Source: a virus. Taken from it: DNA of 64,000 bases. The notes beneath the pieces were generated by a model. That model worked only from the letters and a program-made list of their open reading frames with translations. It made no database searches and was not told where the DNA came from. The translations under genes were made by a program, and so were the position numbers. The stretch covers positions 32,001-96,000 of the IMG/VR virus record IMGVR_UViG_3300008085_000023; one strand, given 5' to 3'. Of this stretch, positions 3,516 through 60,920 are shown piece by piece. How positions within the stretch are numbered: the first letter of the stretch is position 1; every line of letters starts with the position of its first letter.

Positions 3516-3591
3516 TGTGTCTTCCTTTGGTTATTCATTAACTACTGTATTATTATACTATAGTTGACAACAAATGTACACTATATTTTTT

Positions 3592-29426: not shown

Positions 29427-29894
29427 CTACATCTCAATCGCAATATGATCAACGCCGGCTTCGTTAAAATAATCCAACGCTTTACGACAAGACTCCACCC
29501 AACGTTGGGGGAGCTGTTTAAGCTCAACTACTACTCGTTTTATTCCAACTTGAATAATGCCCTTAGCGCATTCCTCACATACAAACAACCCATGGATGTA
29601 TATCGTAGATCCTGTAAGAGACACACCCTTTGATGTGGCGTTATATATCGCGTTCATTTCACCATGAACCATTAATTCATATTTAAGTTTACGGATTTGC
29701 AAGCGGGGAATGCGATCCTGTATTCCTCTAGGGAATCCATTATAACCTAAGCTTAAGACATTCCTATCATCATCTACAATCACTGCTCCAACTTTCGTTG
29801 AAGGGTCCTTAGACCAGCCAGATATATGCTTCGCCAGATCTAAGAATCTTATATCCCACTTCGGGGAATACACAACTATTCTACTTTTATCCAT
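29427..29894 (-). CDS. cd: dCMP deaminase
   Basis: SKDPSTKVGAVI, GYNGFPRG, HGEMNAI, CEECAK. Confidence 0.95.
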   Translation of the reverse strand: MDKSRIVVYSPKWDIRFLDLAKHISGWSKDPSTKVGAVIVDDDRNVLSLGYNGFPRGIQDRIPRLQIRKLKYELMVHGEMNAIYNATSKGVSLTGSTIYIHGLFVCEECAKGIIQVGIKRVVVELKQLPQRWVESCRKALDYFNEAGVDHIAIEM

Positions 29895-29895
29895 A

Positions 29896-30504
29896 CTATG
29901 CCTTTTCCGGTCTGCAGTTATCAAAATGATATCTTGTCATATTTTGTTTCCCGCCAGATTTTCCACAATGAGGGCATTCAACAATCTGTTGTGGTGCAGA
30001 CTTACCCTTATTCCACGTAGGCTTTCCTGCGCGGTTTTCTGACATTTTCTTACGACTTTCAAGAGTATGCCCTCGGCCGAACATAGAATTCTTTTCACCA
30101 GCCATAGCTTTACTTTGAGCAGGGCGTTTTTGGCCAATGAGAGTCTTGGACATAATACTCGCTCTTTGTCTCTGTTCAGCTTTTCGTTCAGGTGTCCAAG
30201 CATCTCTAAGTTTTTGCTTGGTGTCATCATCATGAATAAAACCAATACGCCAACCTTGCGAACCGCCGACTGCTCGGTTCCACCCAATACCTTTAGTCGG
30301 TCGTAATTCAAATTCGCGTTCAAAACACTCTTCTCGAGAACCTTCATAAATGATTTTAACTTTTGCATTAGATGGTATATTTTTAGTCTTTAGCAAATGA
30401 GTTTTAAAACGGCGCGCAACATTTGCTGTAACTCCAACGTAACCATCGTTTTTAATGTTTTGACACGTTTCATCATACACCCAGTACACATAAGTAGTTT
30501 CCAT
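29896..30504 (-). CDS. GIY-YIG/NUMOD3 homing endonuclease
   Basis: YVYWV...GYVGVT...RFKTH, HTLESRKKMSE, CPHCGK; TATAAATA upstream. Confidence 0.85.
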   Translation of the reverse strand: METTYVYWVYDETCQNIKNDGYVGVTANVARRFKTHLLKTKNIPSNAKVKIIYEGSREECFEREFELRPTKGIGWNRAVGGSQGWRIGFIHDDDTKQKLRDAWTPERKAEQRQRASIMSKTLIGQKRPAQSKAMAGEKNSMFGRGHTLESRKKMSENRAGKPTWNKGKSAPQQIVECPHCGKSGGKQNMTRYHFDNCRPEKA

Positions 30505-32338: not shown

Positions 32339-33295
32339 TCAGGTGTTCCGTATGATGAACGATATGGCTCTTGCAGCCTCCAACTGCAGAGGCCTCTTCT
32401 GATATCGTGCGCCAAAGTCTAAATCTATACCCGACATAAGCTCGGCTATCTCAAATGGAGTGATGGGGTATTTCTGCCGAATGGCATTTCCTGCGATAGA
32501 AGTCATGATCTTATAGAAGAGACCGTAGCGGCCTGTACCGTCCTGAAATGCTATTGACTGATATTCCCGCAGAAGTTTGCGATTGACGAATGGGCAATCC
32601 TGATATGACGTCCATTGAAAGTTATTATTGGTGAGAGATTGCTTACGTTGCTTGATCACTGCGCGCTGTACGTCTTCTGGCAGCTTAGACAAGAAGTCAC
32701 GAGGCGGCTCAACGTATTTAGTTTTGGCCATAAGCACATCAGGATTTATGACAGTGCTGCCTCCAAGTCGGAATATGAAGTTGAAAGCGTCTGGATACTC
32801 TGCTGGAACATAATACATCCGAGACAAATCCTTGGTCTGAGGATCACTTACATCGTTGAACTCTTTATTGAGAGCAAACCAAAAGTGTCTAATCTTATCG
32901 GCGGGAATATCCTTGCTTAGATTAAGGACGATTCGAAACTTTGGATGCTCTTTGGTGCTAGATGCAGATGAATAACATATGCCCCGATACTCCTTAAACA
33001 TCTCAAGCGTCTCTTGGAATGAACCTTCATAGTTATCAATGTCGATAGCAGTCCAGGATGACCAATGCGTAACATTATCGTTAGCTCTAGTCGTGTTAGG
33101 CTTGTACTTCGCAGGTGATATTAGAGGCGCTGCGCCGCGGCGGTGGCGTTCGCCGCGCTTAAGCTTAAAACCCGGCACCTTACTCATTCCGAATAAAGCT
33201 TCCTCAAACTTATCCCAATTCTCAAATGTTAAACCACGCGTGGTGGCGTTAGAGAATATCGATTTGAATACAGTTAGCTCTTTCATTTTCGGCAT
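32339..33295 (-). CDS. AEP/PrimPol-type primase-like protein
   Basis: AIDID, SSASST..PKFRIVL, DPQTKDLSRMYYVP; helical C-terminal domain. Confidence 0.7.
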   Translation of the reverse strand: MPKMKELTVFKSIFSNATTRGLTFENWDKFEEALFGMSKVPGFKLKRGERHRRGAAPLISPAKYKPNTTRANDNVTHWSSWTAIDIDNYEGSFQETLEMFKEYRGICYSSASSTKEHPKFRIVLNLSKDIPADKIRHFWFALNKEFNDVSDPQTKDLSRMYYVPAEYPDAFNFIFRLGGSTVINPDVLMAKTKYVEPPRDFLSKLPEDVQRAVIKQRKQSLTNNNFQWTSYQDCPFVNRKLLREYQSIAFQDGTGRYGLFYKIMTSIAGNAIRQKYPITPFEIAELMSGIDLDFGARYQKRPLQLEAARAISFIIRNT

Positions 33296-33516
33296 TCCTT
33301 AATCATTGTGTTAATCAATTTACGTAAATGCGGCCAATCTTCAGGATCAATTGAAATTGTTAAAAATTCTTCAGTGGTTTCAGTATAACCTGTAAGTCGA
33401 ATATACTCGCCTCCTCCGGCATTAATAATTTCAACGTCAAATGATGATGGACCATTATCGTCTCCAACAACTTCAAGAGAACGTTTTAACACTCGTGTTT
33501 TGCGATACTCGCTCAT
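33283..33516 (-). CDS. hypothetical protein
   Basis: Short ORF coupled to polymerase stop. Confidence 0.5.
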   Translation of the reverse strand: MSEYRKTRVLKRSLEVVGDDNGPSSFDVEIINAGGGEYIRLTGYTETTEEFLTISIDPEDWPHLRKLINTMIKECRK

Positions 33517-34430
33517 TGAAAGAAGTCCTCCAAACTTGCTCTCGGTTCCGTTGACCATCCAATAGCGTCTAACACATTTTGAATAGGATCAATATATGTT
33601 TTAGTGAACTGAAGTTCATAATCAATATAGCGTTCAAGACCCAATTCAGTTGGCAACTTATCATCAGGGTACGATATCACATTTTCGTTTATAGGATTAG
33701 GCAACTTAAGATAAACGAACTTGATCTTATCGCCATTGAAGATACTGTGATATTTCCGCAGCTTCTTTGTCTTAAGCATATTGTTATAAAGGATCGCACC
33801 TCTCGCATGGATAGGTGTGCCTTTTGCATATCCATTGTTCGTAACATACTTGGCGACGTCTGATACTGAGCGAGGGAAAGATACTTCATGAATAGGTGCA
33901 TTGAAAAACTTAACCTTGAATTTAGCTACAGCATTTTGAACAGCATGTTCGTCTTCATTCATGATAACATTGAAGATAGATTTCATCGCAGTACGACATA
34001 TCTGTGGTGTAGATGACTTAACGCATTCCAATCCCATGACCTTAAGCTTAGGCTCAGCATAGCGTACACCTTCAGAGTCAAGTACATTAAGGATGTAATG
34101 CTTTTTGCCTGTCCAAAGACCACGGTCGGCGATTACCTCACGGGCCATCACCATACGATTTTCAATCGCACCATGGTGTGCTGCAAATCGTTCGAAGGCT
34201 TCATTGAAAACCTCCACCATAAAGCGCTCACCAAATTCGTTCAGGAATTTAACAGGATCCTTTGGCTTAAACTTTTCAATCACATCCTTAACGCTGATGT
34301 ACAGCGAATTATGCACGCATATATTATTACCAAAAAAGTTGTGATTGCGTTCAACCTCAATGTCATAGACATCTATTTCCTGTATGCCTAAATCCTCTAC
34401 TTCGAAATCATTATACTCGAGTTCTAACAT
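33513..34430 (-). CDS. gp43: C-intein (41 aa) fused to C-terminal part of family B DNA polymerase
   Basis: VYDIEV...HNFFGNNICVHN|SLY then REVIAD, KKHYILNV, KVMGLE.VKSSTP, KGTPIH.RG. Confidence 0.95.
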   Translation of the reverse strand: MLELEYNDFEVEDLGIQEIDVYDIEVERNHNFFGNNICVHNSLYISVKDVIEKFKPKDPVKFLNEFGERFMVEVFNEAFERFAAHHGAIENRMVMAREVIADRGLWTGKKHYILNVLDSEGVRYAEPKLKVMGLECVKSSTPQICRTAMKSIFNVIMNEDEHAVQNAVAKFKVKFFNAPIHEVSFPRSVSDVAKYVTNNGYAKGTPIHARGAILYNNMLKTKKLRKYHSIFNGDKIKFVYLKLPNPINENVISYPDDKLPTELGLERYIDYELQFTKTYIDPIQNVLDAIGWSTEPRASLEDFFQ

Positions 34431-35496
34431 AATCTAAAATCCTTTCAATACACTCTGCGGGGTTACGATCCCAATCTCTCTCCCATATCATTATAACAGG
34501 AAACTTGCGACTTATAAACAAATAATTGTTTTTGAAATCATCAGCCGCCCATTTTTCCCTTGCGGTTAAATTGGTGCATCCTCTACCTCGTAATTTATCG
34601 CTCGGCTTGTATAAACTGGGGTTGCCATGATAATGATCGCCATTAAATTCAATCGCAAATTTATACTTTAGAGATACAAAATCGTACTTGAATAAGCAAT
34701 TTTTCACATCGCACCAAACACCATATTCATTCTCTCCATAAAACATTCGTGAATCTTCAAATAATTTAGTATTAGCAAGACGTGAAAAAAGCGCGAAAGA
34801 CTTTTTGCTGTAGAAAGATCTTTGGGAATTAATATATGCATAGTATCGATCAGTGCCATTCTCCTCACCATATCTTTCAATGTACACTGGTAAAGTATGG
34901 CTCTTTTGACGATTAATACTACGGTAGCGCTCAGTTCCCAGGTGTTCTTCAGAATTAGTATATGCTTGTCGCGATCGGTAGTCTTCCCACATTTTTCTAC
35001 CAATTACATCGCCATGTCTACTAATGAAGTTTGCTAGCGTGCAAGAGCGAGAGCGATTAAACTCGTCAAACTCCTTTTTCGTCCACCCAAACCTTCTGTT
35101 CTTATACTCGAATGTATTTGATTCACCCTGTCTTTTGCGATAAGCAGTGAAGCGTCTTTGGCCTTCGCTCTTGCCGTACCTTTCTATCAGTATCTTTAAC
35201 GAAACCCCCCTTGGCCGATGGAGATCATACTGTATTTGCCCTTCTTCATCACCGTATTGCAGCTGATACCGTTCAAGAGTATTGGCTGCGGCGATTTCCG
35301 CTAATCGAATGCAAGCAGAGCAGAATTCTTCCCATGTTCTTAAATTGCGAGCAATAAGGCGGCGGAATCCCACAGTTCGGCGATATCTCCAAATAATCAT
35401 AAAGTCGTCATAATCAATTTTATCAATGTCTGGAATATATGGAATTAACGCCCGAAGCGCATTATAGTGTTTTATCTGTATCTTATGCATGTACAA
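34411..35496 (-). CDS. free-standing homing endonuclease (Vsr/very-short-patch-like) between split intein halves
   Basis: Repeated ERYGEENG-type motifs; YDF...IEFNGDHYHGNP...IWERDW. Confidence 0.8.
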   Translation of the reverse strand: MYMHKIQIKHYNALRALIPYIPDIDKIDYDDFMIIWRYRRTVGFRRLIARNLRTWEEFCSACIRLAEIAAANTLERYQLQYGDEEGQIQYDLHRPRGVSLKILIERYGKSEGQRRFTAYRKRQGESNTFEYKNRRFGWTKKEFDEFNRSRSCTLANFISRHGDVIGRKMWEDYRSRQAYTNSEEHLGTERYRSINRQKSHTLPVYIERYGEENGTDRYYAYINSQRSFYSKKSFALFSRLANTKLFEDSRMFYGENEYGVWCDVKNCLFKYDFVSLKYKFAIEFNGDHYHGNPSLYKPSDKLRGRGCTNLTAREKWAADDFKNNYLFISRKFPVIMIWERDWDRNPAECIERILDYVRTRV

Positions 35497-36044
35497 TATT
35501 TATAATCTGGTGTTTTTTGGTGTTAAGATCCTTTGGCTTAATCGAAAAAACCTTTTTAGACGTTCTATCCCGAACAATACAAGAATGATCTTCTGTGACG
35601 TCAACACTGCCTCTTGGTGTCTTGATACGGAACATCCGCTTTTTAACACTATGCTTCATGACATAGTTAATACGTCTTTCCTCAAGCTTTGCTGTAGAAG
35701 ATACAGAAAGGGTCGTGCAATCTAAATGGCTTGTAGACTTGACGTAATCGCGGTTAAAGTCGTCCTTACGGATATAATGGTCTTCATCTACAGATTCGTA
35801 AAATTCAGCAATAGTCGTTTCCTGACCGTTAACCAAAAGACTGGTTGAACCAGCAACACTATCAGTGTCAATCGCAATTACACGATCTTTGTCCTTCGTA
35901 CCTAAGAAAGCATTAAGTTTTTCATTGATGATACGTTCAGCAAACTGAATAACAGCTTGACCTGTTAATGTAACACCTTCTGCAATACGCAAGTCGAAGT
36001 AACGAAAGTATTGATTAGCCAAGGCGCCATACAGGCTATTTAAT
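35483..36044 (-). CDS. gp43: DNA polymerase gp43B exon 2 plus N-intein (35483-35860)
   Basis: LNSLYGALANQYFRYFD...IAIDTD|SVAGST; block B VTEDHS. Confidence 0.9.
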
Positions 36045-36288
36045 CATTGTGTTCAAAATACTGCGTTACGGTATTCCCGGGATTTCCCCAGCTCATATTT
36101 TCATACGAGATCAGACTATATCTTCAACTCAATGAGTTGCCGAGCGCTTCCATTCACTTGAATGTACTCCTTGCGGATAGTCGTTGCACCTTCCACTTTG
36201 TGGCTTGGCTCAGTATTAGCATTTGAAAGCCTTCACTGAATTCACACGGTGTTAACGTGAGCATCGCTGCTCACGGTCCCACTATTTT
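36045..36288 (-). mobile_element. group I intron (244 nt, no ORF) in DNA polymerase motif B
   Basis: 5' exon ends U with U.G in P1 (TCCT|AAAATAGT-GGGA); GCAACGACTA and AAGATATAGTCT (P7); terminal G; removal restores AYKILLNSLYG in frame. Confidence 0.9.
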
Positions 36289-36389
36289 AGGATCTTGTAA
36301 GCCATTTGCTGATTAGAGAACACCTCAATCTTAGCATCGAGAGTGTGTATCTTCAATCGCAGCTCTGCTATTCTTTCTTCTTTATTCAT
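36289..36389 (-). CDS. gp43: DNA polymerase gp43B exon 1 (not in ORF track)
   Basis: MNKEERIAELRLKIHTLDAKIEVFSNQQMAYKI + CT; AAGGT RBS; own early promoter. Confidence 0.85.
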
Positions 36390-36413
36390 AAAACTACCTT
36401 TCATTAGAGAACC

Positions 36414-36443
36414 ATTATACCACAATTCACTAAGCATGTACAC
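36414..36443 (-). promoter_or_regulatory. early promoter driving gp43B
   Basis: GTGTACA-N18-TATAAT. Confidence 0.8.
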
Positions 36444-37185
36444 TGATGTTTTTACAGTTTGAAAAATGATACCTAGTCATATTACCTCCACTGCCTTCAA
36501 CACCACAATGAGGGCACTTCACTAGCTTTAGAGAGCGTGGTTTACGAAGCTGCAATAGTTGACGCTGTTTAACGGAAGGAGTTATGCCTTGGACAAATCC
36601 CATTGGAATAGCTTCACCATCTCGTAAATATATTGTTTCATCCGTCAAATGATTAGAGTATAAGCGTCGGCCTCTAATACCATTTTTCGACATCTTTGAT
36701 CGTGTAGCATGGCTATGACTAGATCCAGTTCTATAATATACTAACTCCCCCGAGACGTATCGTGGATCATTAACTGCTACTCTAAACGTTTCGCCAATTG
36801 CGTTCTTCACGACAACATAACCCGTTGAACGTTTAGATATTTCATCACGGACAGATTGGCTACGCTTCCGGCCACGGTTTGATGTTGAAATAGCACTACT
36901 AATATATTTTCTAGCAGCCTCGTATAAAACCGACCGACCATTACAAACTCGTTTCATCATATTGAATGCAAACCAAAGCTTGCTATTATTTGTGCTTTTA
37001 GCAAGCAAATAATGGGCGATAAAATGCGCGCGATATGGAAGTTTTATGATATTGGTTTCGTCGTCTGTTCCGCCAGCACACTTAGGTATAATATGGTGTA
37101 GTTCACCTTCAGAAATAATCTGCGAACTATAGTGTTCAATAAAGCGCTGGTAACGACCGTAATAATGTTGTGAGTATATGTTCAT
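36430..37185 (-). CDS. HNH homing endonuclease
   Basis: ELHHIIPKCAGGTD...HFIAHYLL; CPHC tail; TATAAATA upstream. Confidence 0.85.
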   Translation of the reverse strand: MNIYSQHYYGRYQRFIEHYSSQIISEGELHHIIPKCAGGTDDETNIIKLPYRAHFIAHYLLAKSTNNSKLWFAFNMMKRVCNGRSVLYEAARKYISSAISTSNRGRKRSQSVRDEISKRSTGYVVVKNAIGETFRVAVNDPRYVSGELVYYRTGSSHSHATRSKMSKNGIRGRRLYSNHLTDETIYLRDGEAIPMGFVQGITPSVKQRQLLQLRKPRSLKLVKCPHCGVEGSGGNMTRYHFSNCKNISVHA

Positions 37186-37218
37186 ACAGACTATTTATAC
37201 TTTAGAAGCTTTAACTCT

Positions 37219-38709
37219 CTATACGGCTTCCAGCAAGCTCAGATCGTTCAACAAAGCTTCCCTTTCCTGCATCGCTTCGATCATCTTGCCTTTGAGACCT
37301 TTGCGCTTAGCATAAATTTCACTAACAATCATTGGGATGAACCCCACTTTGTTAGTTTTGAACTGAGCGCCATTCGCAGCTACGGTTATATCTGGATCAT
37401 CAACTCTAAACGTTTCGTCAATGAAACCTTGGACAGATGCCTCAAGATTGCGCTTAGGCAAAAGAGTTTCCGTAGACATATTGTTCTGAATAATCAACGA
37501 TGGGTACAACGAATTTAAATCGAAACTCATCACCCAATCATGCATACCAACCTGCGGTATTTTAACGAAACCTCCTGCATAACTGGTTGCGGTTTTTCCA
37601 GCATTTGAGATGGGAGGTACAACATTAGCTTCGCACAATCTACGATAAATGATGCCATCCCAGATTGGTGTGGTTTTCAAAGCGTCAGCATAATTCGTGC
37701 CGGCCATATATGATAGTGTGAAGCAAATGTCAATGAATCCAAGCTTATCATCTAAAGCGTCAACCAAACCAACGTCCTTGATGTTGTATTCAATAAACTT
37801 TTGAAAGTTCTTTTCGTACAGGTCATTAAGGTTGCCGATTTCAGAATAGTCCAACTTCGTTTCACCAAGGACTATGTGAGCGATATGATTGAGTGTATAT
37901 GACTCTTGGTTGCCATAGGTATATGCAAACTTTTTGAAGAGTTCAATATAGTCAAGATGCTGGATGCCTGATATCTCAAACGTCGGGCGCTTCTGACCAT
38001 AGAAGTTGACGTCTCGTGCTGAGATAAGTTTCCATGGCGAAAGCAACTTAGCGGTGCCCTCACCTAACACCGCTTCAATACGATTAATGAGATACGGAAC
38101 ATCGAAAAACATTGTGTTCCAACCAGTTAAAACGTCGGGACGATTATATGGTTGCTGCCACCATTCTAAAAAGGTGTTAAGCATATCGGCTTCATCTTTG
38201 CATGGGATAAAGTTCACACCGTCCATATGTGGAGCATACTGCTTTTTGAAAGCAAAGACGTAATACTGACCGTCCCGCGATTGCTTAATAGTAATGGCGC
38301 GGACTTCCTCGGCCGCGGTAGCCGGATTAGGAAACCCATCGCCCACTGCAGTCTCAATATCCATGTTGGAAATATTGATGAAGCGAGAATCATAGTCAAC
38401 ACGGCCTGGAAACTTTTCCTGGGTGAAGGCCATGACATGACGGTCGGTACCAAAGATTTCGAAGCTAGGAATATGTTTATATTGATTGACGAAGTCGCGC
38501 ATATCGCGCATAGAATCAAGGCGCACCTCTTTAACCGGTGCGCCAAAGATCGACTTCTTATCAGTAGCTTCGTTCTTGTCTTTAGTGGGGATGAAAACCT
38601 TTGGCTTAAACATAACGCGTTTCTCAATGCGTTTGCCTTCACCATCGTAGCCGCAGTAAAGCAGCTTGTTACCAAATCTATCTATTGATGTATAAAATTC
38701 ACTGTTCAT
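37219..38709 (-). CDS. gp43: DNA polymerase gp43A (exonuclease + palm motif A)
   Basis: DIET, TGWNTMFFDVPYL, YNIKDV, SFDLNSLYPS; ends in fingers domain. Confidence 0.95.
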   Translation of the reverse strand: MNSEFYTSIDRFGNKLLYCGYDGEGKRIEKRVMFKPKVFIPTKDKNEATDKKSIFGAPVKEVRLDSMRDMRDFVNQYKHIPSFEIFGTDRHVMAFTQEKFPGRVDYDSRFINISNMDIETAVGDGFPNPATAAEEVRAITIKQSRDGQYYVFAFKKQYAPHMDGVNFIPCKDEADMLNTFLEWWQQPYNRPDVLTGWNTMFFDVPYLINRIEAVLGEGTAKLLSPWKLISARDVNFYGQKRPTFEISGIQHLDYIELFKKFAYTYGNQESYTLNHIAHIVLGETKLDYSEIGNLNDLYEKNFQKFIEYNIKDVGLVDALDDKLGFIDICFTLSYMAGTNYADALKTTPIWDGIIYRRLCEANVVPPISNAGKTATSYAGGFVKIPQVGMHDWVMSFDLNSLYPSLIIQNNMSTETLLPKRNLEASVQGFIDETFRVDDPDITVAANGAQFKTNKVGFIPMIVSEIYAKRKGLKGKMIEAMQEREALLNDLSLLEAV

Positions 38710-38775
38710 AGATTTATTATAACACAAAGGGAGCAGATTGTACACAACAAAATGCTCCCTGAAGTGGATATTAAA

Positions 38776-60143: not shown

Positions 60144-60220
60144 TGGTAGGACAGTTCAGAATCGAACTGAAATTATTTCTCGGTGTAAACGAGGTGCCAT
60201 AACCATTAGGCGACTGTCCC
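60144..60220 (-). tRNA. tRNA-Val(TAC)
   Basis: CCTCG-TTTACAC-CGAGA. Confidence 0.9.
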
Positions 60221-60900
60221 TACATAAATTTTCCACGAAGACCATCTCGTTTGCGGCCTTTCGTGTGATGTTGTGTATTTTCGTATCTCTTAATCAATGC
60301 TTCTTTTACATTTTTTACATGCTCAAGTGTTTTTGGTGTGCCCTTAAGCGCGTTTTTTACAATTGCTCTTCGACAATTCTCTGAACAAGACATACGATCC
60401 AAGCTAATTGATTTACCACAGTTTTTACAAAGGCCAGAACCCCTTTTATTCCAAGCGCTTCTGCCTTTCACCCACCCTTTCGGAATAATGGTATCATTAG
60501 AAATTCGGCTATTCTCTTTAAGCTCGATATTAGAAATCCACATTGTTCCAAACGAGCCATTAAATTTACCAACGCGCTTCTTACCATTAGCGCGCCATGT
60601 ATCTAAGCACATTTTTCGAACCGCTTCATACATGCGGGAATTGCGAATATGAGGAATACCACGTTCTTCACATCTCATTGCCATCATATGACAAGCATGG
60701 GCCATCTGTTTATTTTTATATATTCTAAATAAAAGTAGATGAGCAATCCAATGTTCACGACCTGTTAAAATTACTATATTAGTTAAAGAATAATCACCAC
60801 CCATTGATTTGGGTAATATGTGATGCCGCTCGGTATAGCCTATGGCCGGGTGCTGAAGACGTGTATTGATTAGTGAATCGTAAATATATTTGTAGTTCAT
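60220..60900 (-). CDS. HNH homing endonuclease in tRNA array
   Basis: Start MNYKYIYDSL after TATAAATA; YTERHHILPKSMGG...EHWIAHLLL. Confidence 0.85.
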   Translation of the reverse strand: MNYKYIYDSLINTRLQHPAIGYTERHHILPKSMGGDYSLTNIVILTGREHWIAHLLLFRIYKNKQMAHACHMMAMRCEERGIPHIRNSRMYEAVRKMCLDTWRANGKKRVGKFNGSFGTMWISNIELKENSRISNDTIIPKGWVKGRSAWNKRGSGLCKNCGKSISLDRMSCSENCRRAIVKNALKGTPKTLEHVKNVKEALIKRYENTQHHTKGRKRDGLRGKFM

Positions 60901-60920
60901 AAGGTTATTTATATATTTGC

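Follow-up and report, generated by a model that had tools for sequence, protein, structure and literature searches.

Three homing elements very probably stacked in the single polymerase gene of an uncultivated T4-like phage

The DNA analysed here, a 64,000-nucleotide stretch that we call the window, comprises bases 32001-96000 of the 141,905-bp IMG/VR record IMGVR_UViG_3300008085_000023, which has direct terminal repeats. The record comes from an uncultivated T4-like phage, whose only replicative polymerase gene, of family B (T4 gp43-type), is the gp43 locus at 38709-33513 (window coordinates are used unless stated), laid out entirely on the minus strand. Very probably, three selfish homing elements are stacked in this one essential gene, and the enzyme is rebuilt by RNA self-splicing, protein trans-splicing and the assembly of an A with a B subunit. 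We read the locus from its list of open reading frames (ORFs), from Pfam, PHROG and Rfam scans, and directly from the letters. From 5' to 3' it consists of gp43A; an HNH gene; a promoter and exon 1 of gp43B; a group I intron; exon 2 with the N-terminal half of an intein (N-intein); a Vsr-like gene; and the C-terminal half of the intein (C-intein) with the remainder of the polymerase (C-extein). Each of the putative homing elements sits in or beside a conserved catalytic motif of the polymerase. An earlier interpretation of the letters (the sequence-only reading) had arrived at this gene order and at the coordinates of its parts, and every gene and splice boundary that was checked agrees with it, whether by ORFs, Pfam, PHROG, Rfam or alignment to a cyanophage gp43.

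The polymerase is encoded once. A full-length cyanophage gp43 compared with the genome matched the pieces of the locus one time each, as residues 2-473, 498-568 and 558-829, and had no further significant match anywhere in the genome. An intact polymerase elsewhere would have spoken against the sequence-only reading; when a second polymerase was searched for (PolB PF00136, PolA PF00476), none was found in the 141.9-kb genome. All polymerase motifs occur exactly once, and the exteins are free of frameshifts and stops. About 75 relatives carry an unbroken polymerase gene. Relatives surfaced by protein-level searches only, a megablast of the whole locus against GenBank phages having returned no match. 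With intact intron and intein signatures, a single polymerase and characterised homologues, an active enzyme would need RNA splicing, protein trans-splicing and A/B assembly, as the sequence-only reading had proposed.

Anatomy of the broken gene

The gp43A gene (37219..38709, minus strand, as are all parts of the locus) encodes the N-terminal polymerase subunit, a protein of 496 amino acids (aa) with the N-terminal domain, the 3'-5' exonuclease, motif A (DLNSLYPS) and the first finger helix; its Pfam matches are DNA_pol_B_exo1 (3.4e-20) and DNA_pol_B (1.3e-15). It stops in the fingers region, at a point where its homologues run on in one frame. The polymerase is divided there, between motif A and motif B, into two cistrons with start signals of their own, which is the mark of a split two-subunit T4-type PolB. 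Because palm and fingers are divided over both chains, gp43A and gp43B need to pair, and by analogy with known split polymerases the ligated gp43B would then join gp43A to give the active enzyme.

Between the two cistrons lies the HNH gene (36430..37185), which encodes a putative free-standing homing endonuclease of the Mob type, 251 aa long. It matches phrog_655 ('homing endonuclease') at 5.8e-42, the motif HHIIPK...N...H is readable in its sequence, and the protein is about 33% identical to T4-like phage genes annotated 'homing endonuclease / mobile endonuclease E'. Its C terminus holds a zinc-finger-like module, CPHCG...H..NC. Pfam at E 0.01 did not call its HNH domain, and a PDB sequence search with the protein gave no significant match. 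In this reading the Mob-type gene parts cistron 43A from cistron 43B at the fingers, and brings with it a stop codon, the new start codon of 43B and a phage-type promoter. Exon 1 of gp43B (36289..36404) ends ...QQMAYKI plus CT and has two start candidates, ATG 36389 (MNKEE..., preceded by AAGG) and ATG 36404 (MKGSF..., 9 nucleotides (nt) past the -10 box of the promoter); in the nearest relative, a separate contig (L005), a 3-nt indel in exon 1 leaves both candidate ATGs in frame. The window holds two further copies of phrog_655, one apparently intact at 60163-60912 (E 5.7e-37) and one degenerate at 29872-30255, with three stop codons.

The group I intron (36045..36288) is 244 nt long, contains no ORF and lies 101-116 nt into 43B, inside the coding sequence of motif B (KIL^LNSLYG). 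It aligns to the full length of Rfam model RF00028 (1-253) at 95.7 bits, where the gathering score is 50 (E 2.1e-24). The 5' splice site is marked by a U.G pair in P1 (GAUCCU/GGGAC), which the Rfam alignment sets at GAUCCU|A, so that exon 1 ends with CT at 36289; the 3' terminal G is at 36045. The splice boundaries 36289/36044 of the sequence-only reading are exactly right: joining CT to A restores the reading frame and gives KILLNSLYGALANQYFRYFD, the consensus of motif B (KILLNSLYG), a stretch that is uninterrupted in about 75 related contigs. Exon 2, whose extein part (35861..36044) runs from the rest of motif B (LNSLYGALANQYFRYFD) to motif C and ends IAIDTD, is contiguous with exon 1 in intact homologues. 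The 43B transcript is predicted to self-splice, with ...AAGATCCT|ATTAAATAGC as the ligated exon junction; left unspliced, the RNA has its reading frame closed by a stop two codons inside the intron. No other group I intron was found in the genome. In exact-match scans with the intron core (a 26-mer in viral contigs, a 22-mer in metagenome contigs), the L005 contig was the sole true relative of the intron, the other matches being about 74-80% similar (one 39-nt stretch 92%) and having no match to any piece of the locus.

The remaining break is a split intein at motif C (DTD|S), which spans from the Ser after DTD to the VHN before SLYISVK. The N-intein (35483..35860) has 125 aa plus a stop (35485-35483), with Ser1 (SVAGST...), K69-H70 in the NX motif and TEDH in motif N3. 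The C-intein (34308..34430) has 41 aa and its own ATG at 34430 with an AAGGA Shine-Dalgarno sequence; it ends ...NICVHN, and with the terminal HN followed by Ser+1 the splicing residues are kept. The C-extein (33513..34307) begins with that Ser+1 and supplies the rest of the palm and the thumb, from SLYISVK... to the stop; it matches phrog_262 DNA polymerase at 2.2e-92 and corresponds to residues 558-829 of the cyanophage gp43. Pfam Intein_splicing matches the N-intein weakly and the C-intein at 3.3e-05. The N-intein matches PDB 9HTH at E 2.5e-20; this is the Aes123 PolB1 intein, for which trans-splicing has been measured in vitro (PMC11923092, PMC10189870). Ser1, K69-H70 and T89..H92 are invariant in an alignment with the inteins of Aes508 and Campylobacter phage CP21, and a K-H pair in NX is found specifically in Ser1 inteins (PMC10189870). 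The same DTD|S insertion site is used in Aes508, CP21 and 13 IMG/VR loci. L005 has no intein and reads IAIDTDSLYISVK unbroken, which fixes both intein borders and matches the junction peptide that the sequence-only reading had predicted. By analogy with the Aes123 intein, the two 43B polypeptides would meet via their intein halves and trans-splice to ...IAIDTD-SLYISVK....

The intein halves are on separate ORFs, and the ORF between them is in another frame. This is the Vsr-like gene (34411..35490), which encodes a putative free-standing endonuclease of the EDxHD type, 359 aa long, with a helical-repeat N-terminal part and a C-terminal nuclease domain (aa 224-359). Placed where an endonuclease domain usually sits, it breaks the Ser1/Ser+1 intein at motif C, an arrangement that has been called a 'fractured gene'. 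It matches phrog_22677 at 2e-47 and is 31% identical to the 'putative VSR endonuclease' ORFs at the same place in Aes123/Aes508; a Vsr-like gene stands between the N- and C-intein ORFs in L088, L089, L091, L098 and Aes508 as well. A PDB sequence search with the protein gave no significant match. In an AlphaFold (AF2) model built from five homologues, with a mean predicted local distance difference test (pLDDT) score of only 68, residues 224-359 resemble NGO0050 (3hrl; Z 11.0, root-mean-square deviation (rmsd) 1.7, 91 aligned), E. coli Vsr (Z 10.8 with 1cw0, and 10.0) and the catalytic domain of I-Bth0305I (3r3p; Z 10.4, rmsd 2.4, 96/97 residues); Foldseek with the whole model returned no E below 0.5. 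I-Bth0305I is itself a Vsr-like/EDxHD homing endonuclease (PDB 3R3P); as modelled, the C-terminal domain matches Vsr and I-Bth0305I at Z 10-11. D270, E281, D285, H288 and D317 are invariant in the five homologues, and the assignment of residues of the endonuclease to Vsr Asp51/His69/Asp97 was made by motif likeness, not by residue-level superposition.

A block shared with the nearest relative

L005 shares the split, the promoter and the intron with the window, from a sample whose independence from the window's is not demonstrable. The two loci are 68-72% identical in gp44, regA, gp43A (70%), most of exon 2, the C-extein and the downstream genes. Within this background lies a block (36033..37250) that has much higher identity wherever L005 retains it, made up of the last ~30 nt of gp43A (28/30), the HNH gene (94.5% in its 3' part), the stretch with the promoter (91%), exon 1 (97%), the intron (98%) and the first 12 nt of exon 2 (12/12); the rest of exon 2 falls back to 71.5%. 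Synonymous sites in exon 1 and in the HNH gene are almost unchanged between the two, which a recent transfer of the whole block can explain and constraint on the intron RNA cannot. On the right the high identity ends sharply, 12 nt beyond the intron insertion site, a pattern that suggests a break made close by. We consider it likely, on balance, that the HNH gene, promoter, exon 1 and intron form one linked, recently exchanged homing cassette. As in collaborative homing, the HNH enzyme would cut intron-less alleles near the insertion site and the intron would protect its own genome. The HNH gene of L005 has decayed, its residues 1-167 being gone, which fits the decay expected of a homing endonuclease that has run out of targets.

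Collaborative or trans homing is known from the cyanophage psbA intron with F-CphI, from T4 mobE with the nrdB intron and from T4 mobA with the gene 60 bypass element. In those cassettes, as in the window, a free-standing endonuclease stands beside an ORF-less element thought to protect its carrier, and neighbouring sequence is co-inherited. What sets the block in the window apart from them is its additional stop codon, promoter and start codon, which would split the host gene.

The signals around the genes are of two kinds. GTGTACA-N14-TGGTATAAT occurs in 14 copies in the genome, where 0.8 are expected by chance, and 13 of these are on the coding (minus) strand; copies in the window stand, for example, at 3580, 5380, 6780, 7767, 10190, 14945, 24040, 24620, 36442, 38744, 41950 and 47260, and several have an ATG just 6-9 nt past the -10 box. 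The promoter-like site for gp43B (36414..36442), identical in L005, is one of the 14 and lies partly within the end of the HNH gene. The 'new promoter' that the sequence-only reading had placed before gp43B is thus real as a consensus match, since the sequence fits this phage's own motif. Another of the 14 precedes gp43A (38716..38744; GTGTACA-N14-TGtTATAAT, with the ATG 6 nt past the -10 box). The T4 late-promoter consensus, TATAAATA, is found 33 times in the genome against 12.8 expected, 32 times on the coding (minus) strand, and about half of these boxes have an ATG 5-6 nt downstream; positions in the window include 35504, 37199, 49012, 54525, 56712, 60913 and 62700. Such boxes stand 6 nt before the start codons of the HNH gene (37192..37199) and of the Vsr-like gene (35497..35504), and all four endonuclease genes seen have one, the remaining two being the second HNH copy (60913) and the endonuclease ORF of the fractured reductase-like gene described below. 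As consensus matches only, the boxes suggest that the endonucleases may be expressed late with little or no leader, for which T4 homing endonucleases offer a precedent (PMC2988022).

The chances are about even that the exchanged block is something more specific: a self-contained gene-splitting cassette of HNH gene, downstream promoter and start, exon 1 and ORF-less intron, in which the intron is the immunity element, with all endonuclease genes on near-leaderless late transcripts (TATAAATA-N5-6-ATG). If so, a single conversion event by such a cassette would leave a formerly intact polymerase gene both split and intron-bearing. Set side by side, the window and L005 probably give a clean natural record of such an element being transferred in one piece.

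Homing elements weighed against other explanations

We favour stacked homing elements because the nearest relative lacks the intein, a block of 94-98% identity lies in flanks of about 70%, the HNH gene has decayed in L005, and late-promoter-like boxes precede both endonuclease genes. The sequence-only reading had credited the breaks with offering several control points on replication, a claim that finds no support here, and it is improbable that they are kept as RNA-splicing, protein-splicing and assembly checkpoints that tune replication. The organisation of the signals would suit such a design, since a GTGTACA...TATAAT promoter heads each polymerase cistron and TATAAATA stands 6 nt upstream of the ATG in each endonuclease gene, but nothing ties splicing itself to control. 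Some 75 relatives are unbroken, and the nearest one has no intein and only a decayed HNH gene. Moreover, the insertions lie at conserved motifs, as those of homing elements do, introns occupy four sites in different lineages, and the identity mosaic indicates recent lateral transfer.

Slightly less probable again is a non-covalent three-piece enzyme, in which the intein halves would dock the gp43B fragments without ligation. The split NrdA of Aeh1 and the split gp43 of phage 25 illustrate that split proteins can function unligated (PMC2988022), and the natural Aes intein is inefficient in vitro, as set out below. Yet Ser1, the K-H of NX, TxxH, HN and Ser+1 are all conserved, and an unspliced intein at DTD|S would occupy the catalytic centre at motif C. 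The least probable explanation is a dead gene (a decaying pseudogene) or a chimeric metagenome assembly, to which the incompleteness of an assembled record lends some colour. What makes it unlikely is that all exteins are intact and that the same split and intron, together with the promoter, recur in L005, a separate contig. The exteins hold no frameshift or stop, the motifs are each present once, and the insertions preserve the reading frame and retain their catalytic signatures; other phages have the same arrangement of intein and endonuclease.

Several points nevertheless weigh against stacked homing elements and a rebuilt enzyme. The phage is known from metagenome assembly alone, and the locus was read from DNA only. 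CheckV puts the completeness of the record at 79% despite its terminal repeats, and for this reason a second polymerase might still lie on missing DNA. Once purified, the natural Aes intein reached a splicing efficiency of only about 30% (PMC11923092). The cassette idea is based on one pairwise comparison, window against L005, in which the left edge of the cassette is partly masked by the deletion in L005. The cleavage targets of both putative endonucleases are candidates: intron-less motif B for the HNH enzyme, as suggested by the shared-identity block, and the intein-less allele for the Vsr-like enzyme.

Known systems, recurrence and other split genes

The sequence-only reading had regarded the three devices as known separately in T4-like phages and their union in one gene as unusual. 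That was wrong, because GenBank JN377894 annotates all of them in Aeromonas phage Aes508: gp43A is followed by a GIY-YIG endonuclease of the Seg-like kind, then by 'gp43B-1, N-terminal fragment including group I intron and N-intein', next by an ORF described as VSR-like, and last by 'gp43B-2, C-terminal fragment including C-intein'. Rfam confirms the Aes508 intron at 73.3 bits. With Aes508 we grouped relatives that have the same gp43 layout (Aes123, Aes144, Aes509, Aes512, Aes516, Aes517 and AS-gz). The order of parts in this group is that of the window, its intein is a homologue of the window's that occupies the same site (41-43% identity in the N part, 71% in the C part), and the VSR-like ORF is homologous to the window's (31%). 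However, Aes508 has a GIY-YIG (Seg-like) enzyme between 43A and 43B where the window has an HNH (Mob-like) one, the Aes508 intron is a different insertion about 22 nt further downstream (after YGA, uncertain by about one base), and the host polymerases are only about 29-32% identical to the window's. The HNH enzyme (36433-36525, aa 221-245) and the Aes508 GIY-YIG enzyme (L085:3802-3876) share only the 25-residue C-terminal CPHCG...H..NC module, at 64% identity; their nuclease domains are unlike, and a putative DNA-binding tail is common to both.

Parts of the layout have been described in other phages. For Aeromonas phage 25, PMC2988022 summarises work by Petrov and colleagues (2010, J Mol Biol 395:457) in which the 43A and 43B subunits purified together and had activity, and it cites the ORF-less intron of this phage, with its free-standing endonuclease, as a case of collaborative homing. 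By that account, gene 43 of Aeromonas phages 25/44RR resembles the window's: the break between 43A and 43B falls in the same region, a free-standing endonuclease gene separates these cistrons, and 43B has a group I intron that lacks an ORF; their endonuclease is GIY-YIG and an intein is not described there, whereas the window has an HNH enzyme and an intein. Fractured genes in the sense of Dassa et al. 2009 (PMC2677866) have a split intein and a free-standing Vsr-like gene between overlapping ORFs, as does the window. In the portion of that paper drawn on here, gp43 appears only as an intein-less split gene; the window adds the cistron split and the intron to a fractured gene. The Aes123 PolB1 intein (9HTH; PMC11923092) is a class 1 Ser1/Ser+1 split intein in a T4-like PolB, of 120/39 aa where the window's has 125/41 aa. 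The window's intein keeps the NX and N3 histidines, is about 42% identical in the N part, has non-catalytic cysteines and is known from sequence alone.

The intein is carried by ten Aeromonas phage records, the CP21 group of Campylobacter phages and Vibrio phage VPALA. Among the 13 IMG/VR intein loci, all three devices come together again in L098/L099 (gp43A, exon 1, a group I intron scoring 65.8 bits, exon 2 joined to the N-intein, a Vsr-like gene, then the C-intein) and in L092 (split, intron at 94.9 bits, and intein), which has no endonuclease; L088, L090 and L094 have split and intein without an intron. Bulk negatives for introns are not trustworthy here: Rfam run in 'gathering' mode over ~144 kb at once (L087-L099) missed the introns that scored 65.8 and 94.9 bits in short-region 'evalue' searches. 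Two intein-less loci have gp43 split at the same fingers position, L035 by a 342-nt spacer without an endonuclease (L035:6110-6380) and L080 by a 255-aa ORF with a Vsr-like C terminus (L080:4216-5007). The intron sites are KI-L(CT|A)-LNS in the window and L005, NS-L(CT|G)-YG in L098 and NSA-Y(T|AT)-G in L092; with Aes508, four lineages use four sites within about 22 nt, which makes motif B an intron hot spot. Because the between-cistron endonucleases and the intron sites differ by lineage, the triple layout was assembled independently; judged by sequence likeness, only the intein, plus the Vsr-like gene in lineages carrying one, is homologous across them.

The locus brings no new mechanism. 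What it means is that the most elaborate known breakage of a phage polymerase gene is not confined to one Aeromonas phage group and has been assembled repeatedly in distant T4-like lineages. It also adds a divergent Ser1/Ser+1 split intein (~42% identical to Aes123 PolB1, which is used in protein engineering) together with an intein-free target site.

A second fractured gene is present in the same phage just past the right end of the window (L101:3-2805; genome C1 about 96,663-99,465). There, a class II ribonucleotide reductase-like ORF ends ...NPC|VTADTLV in an N-intein, and is followed by a 254-aa free-standing endonuclease ORF and by a C-intein (...MLVHN|C) with the reductase remainder. A weak intein-like match lies at genome 132940-133044. 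Just downstream of gp43, a 318-aa ORF (32339-33295) matches only the first ~270 of 939 positions of the primase profile phrog_9765 (1.2e-48) and may be a short primase or another split gene.

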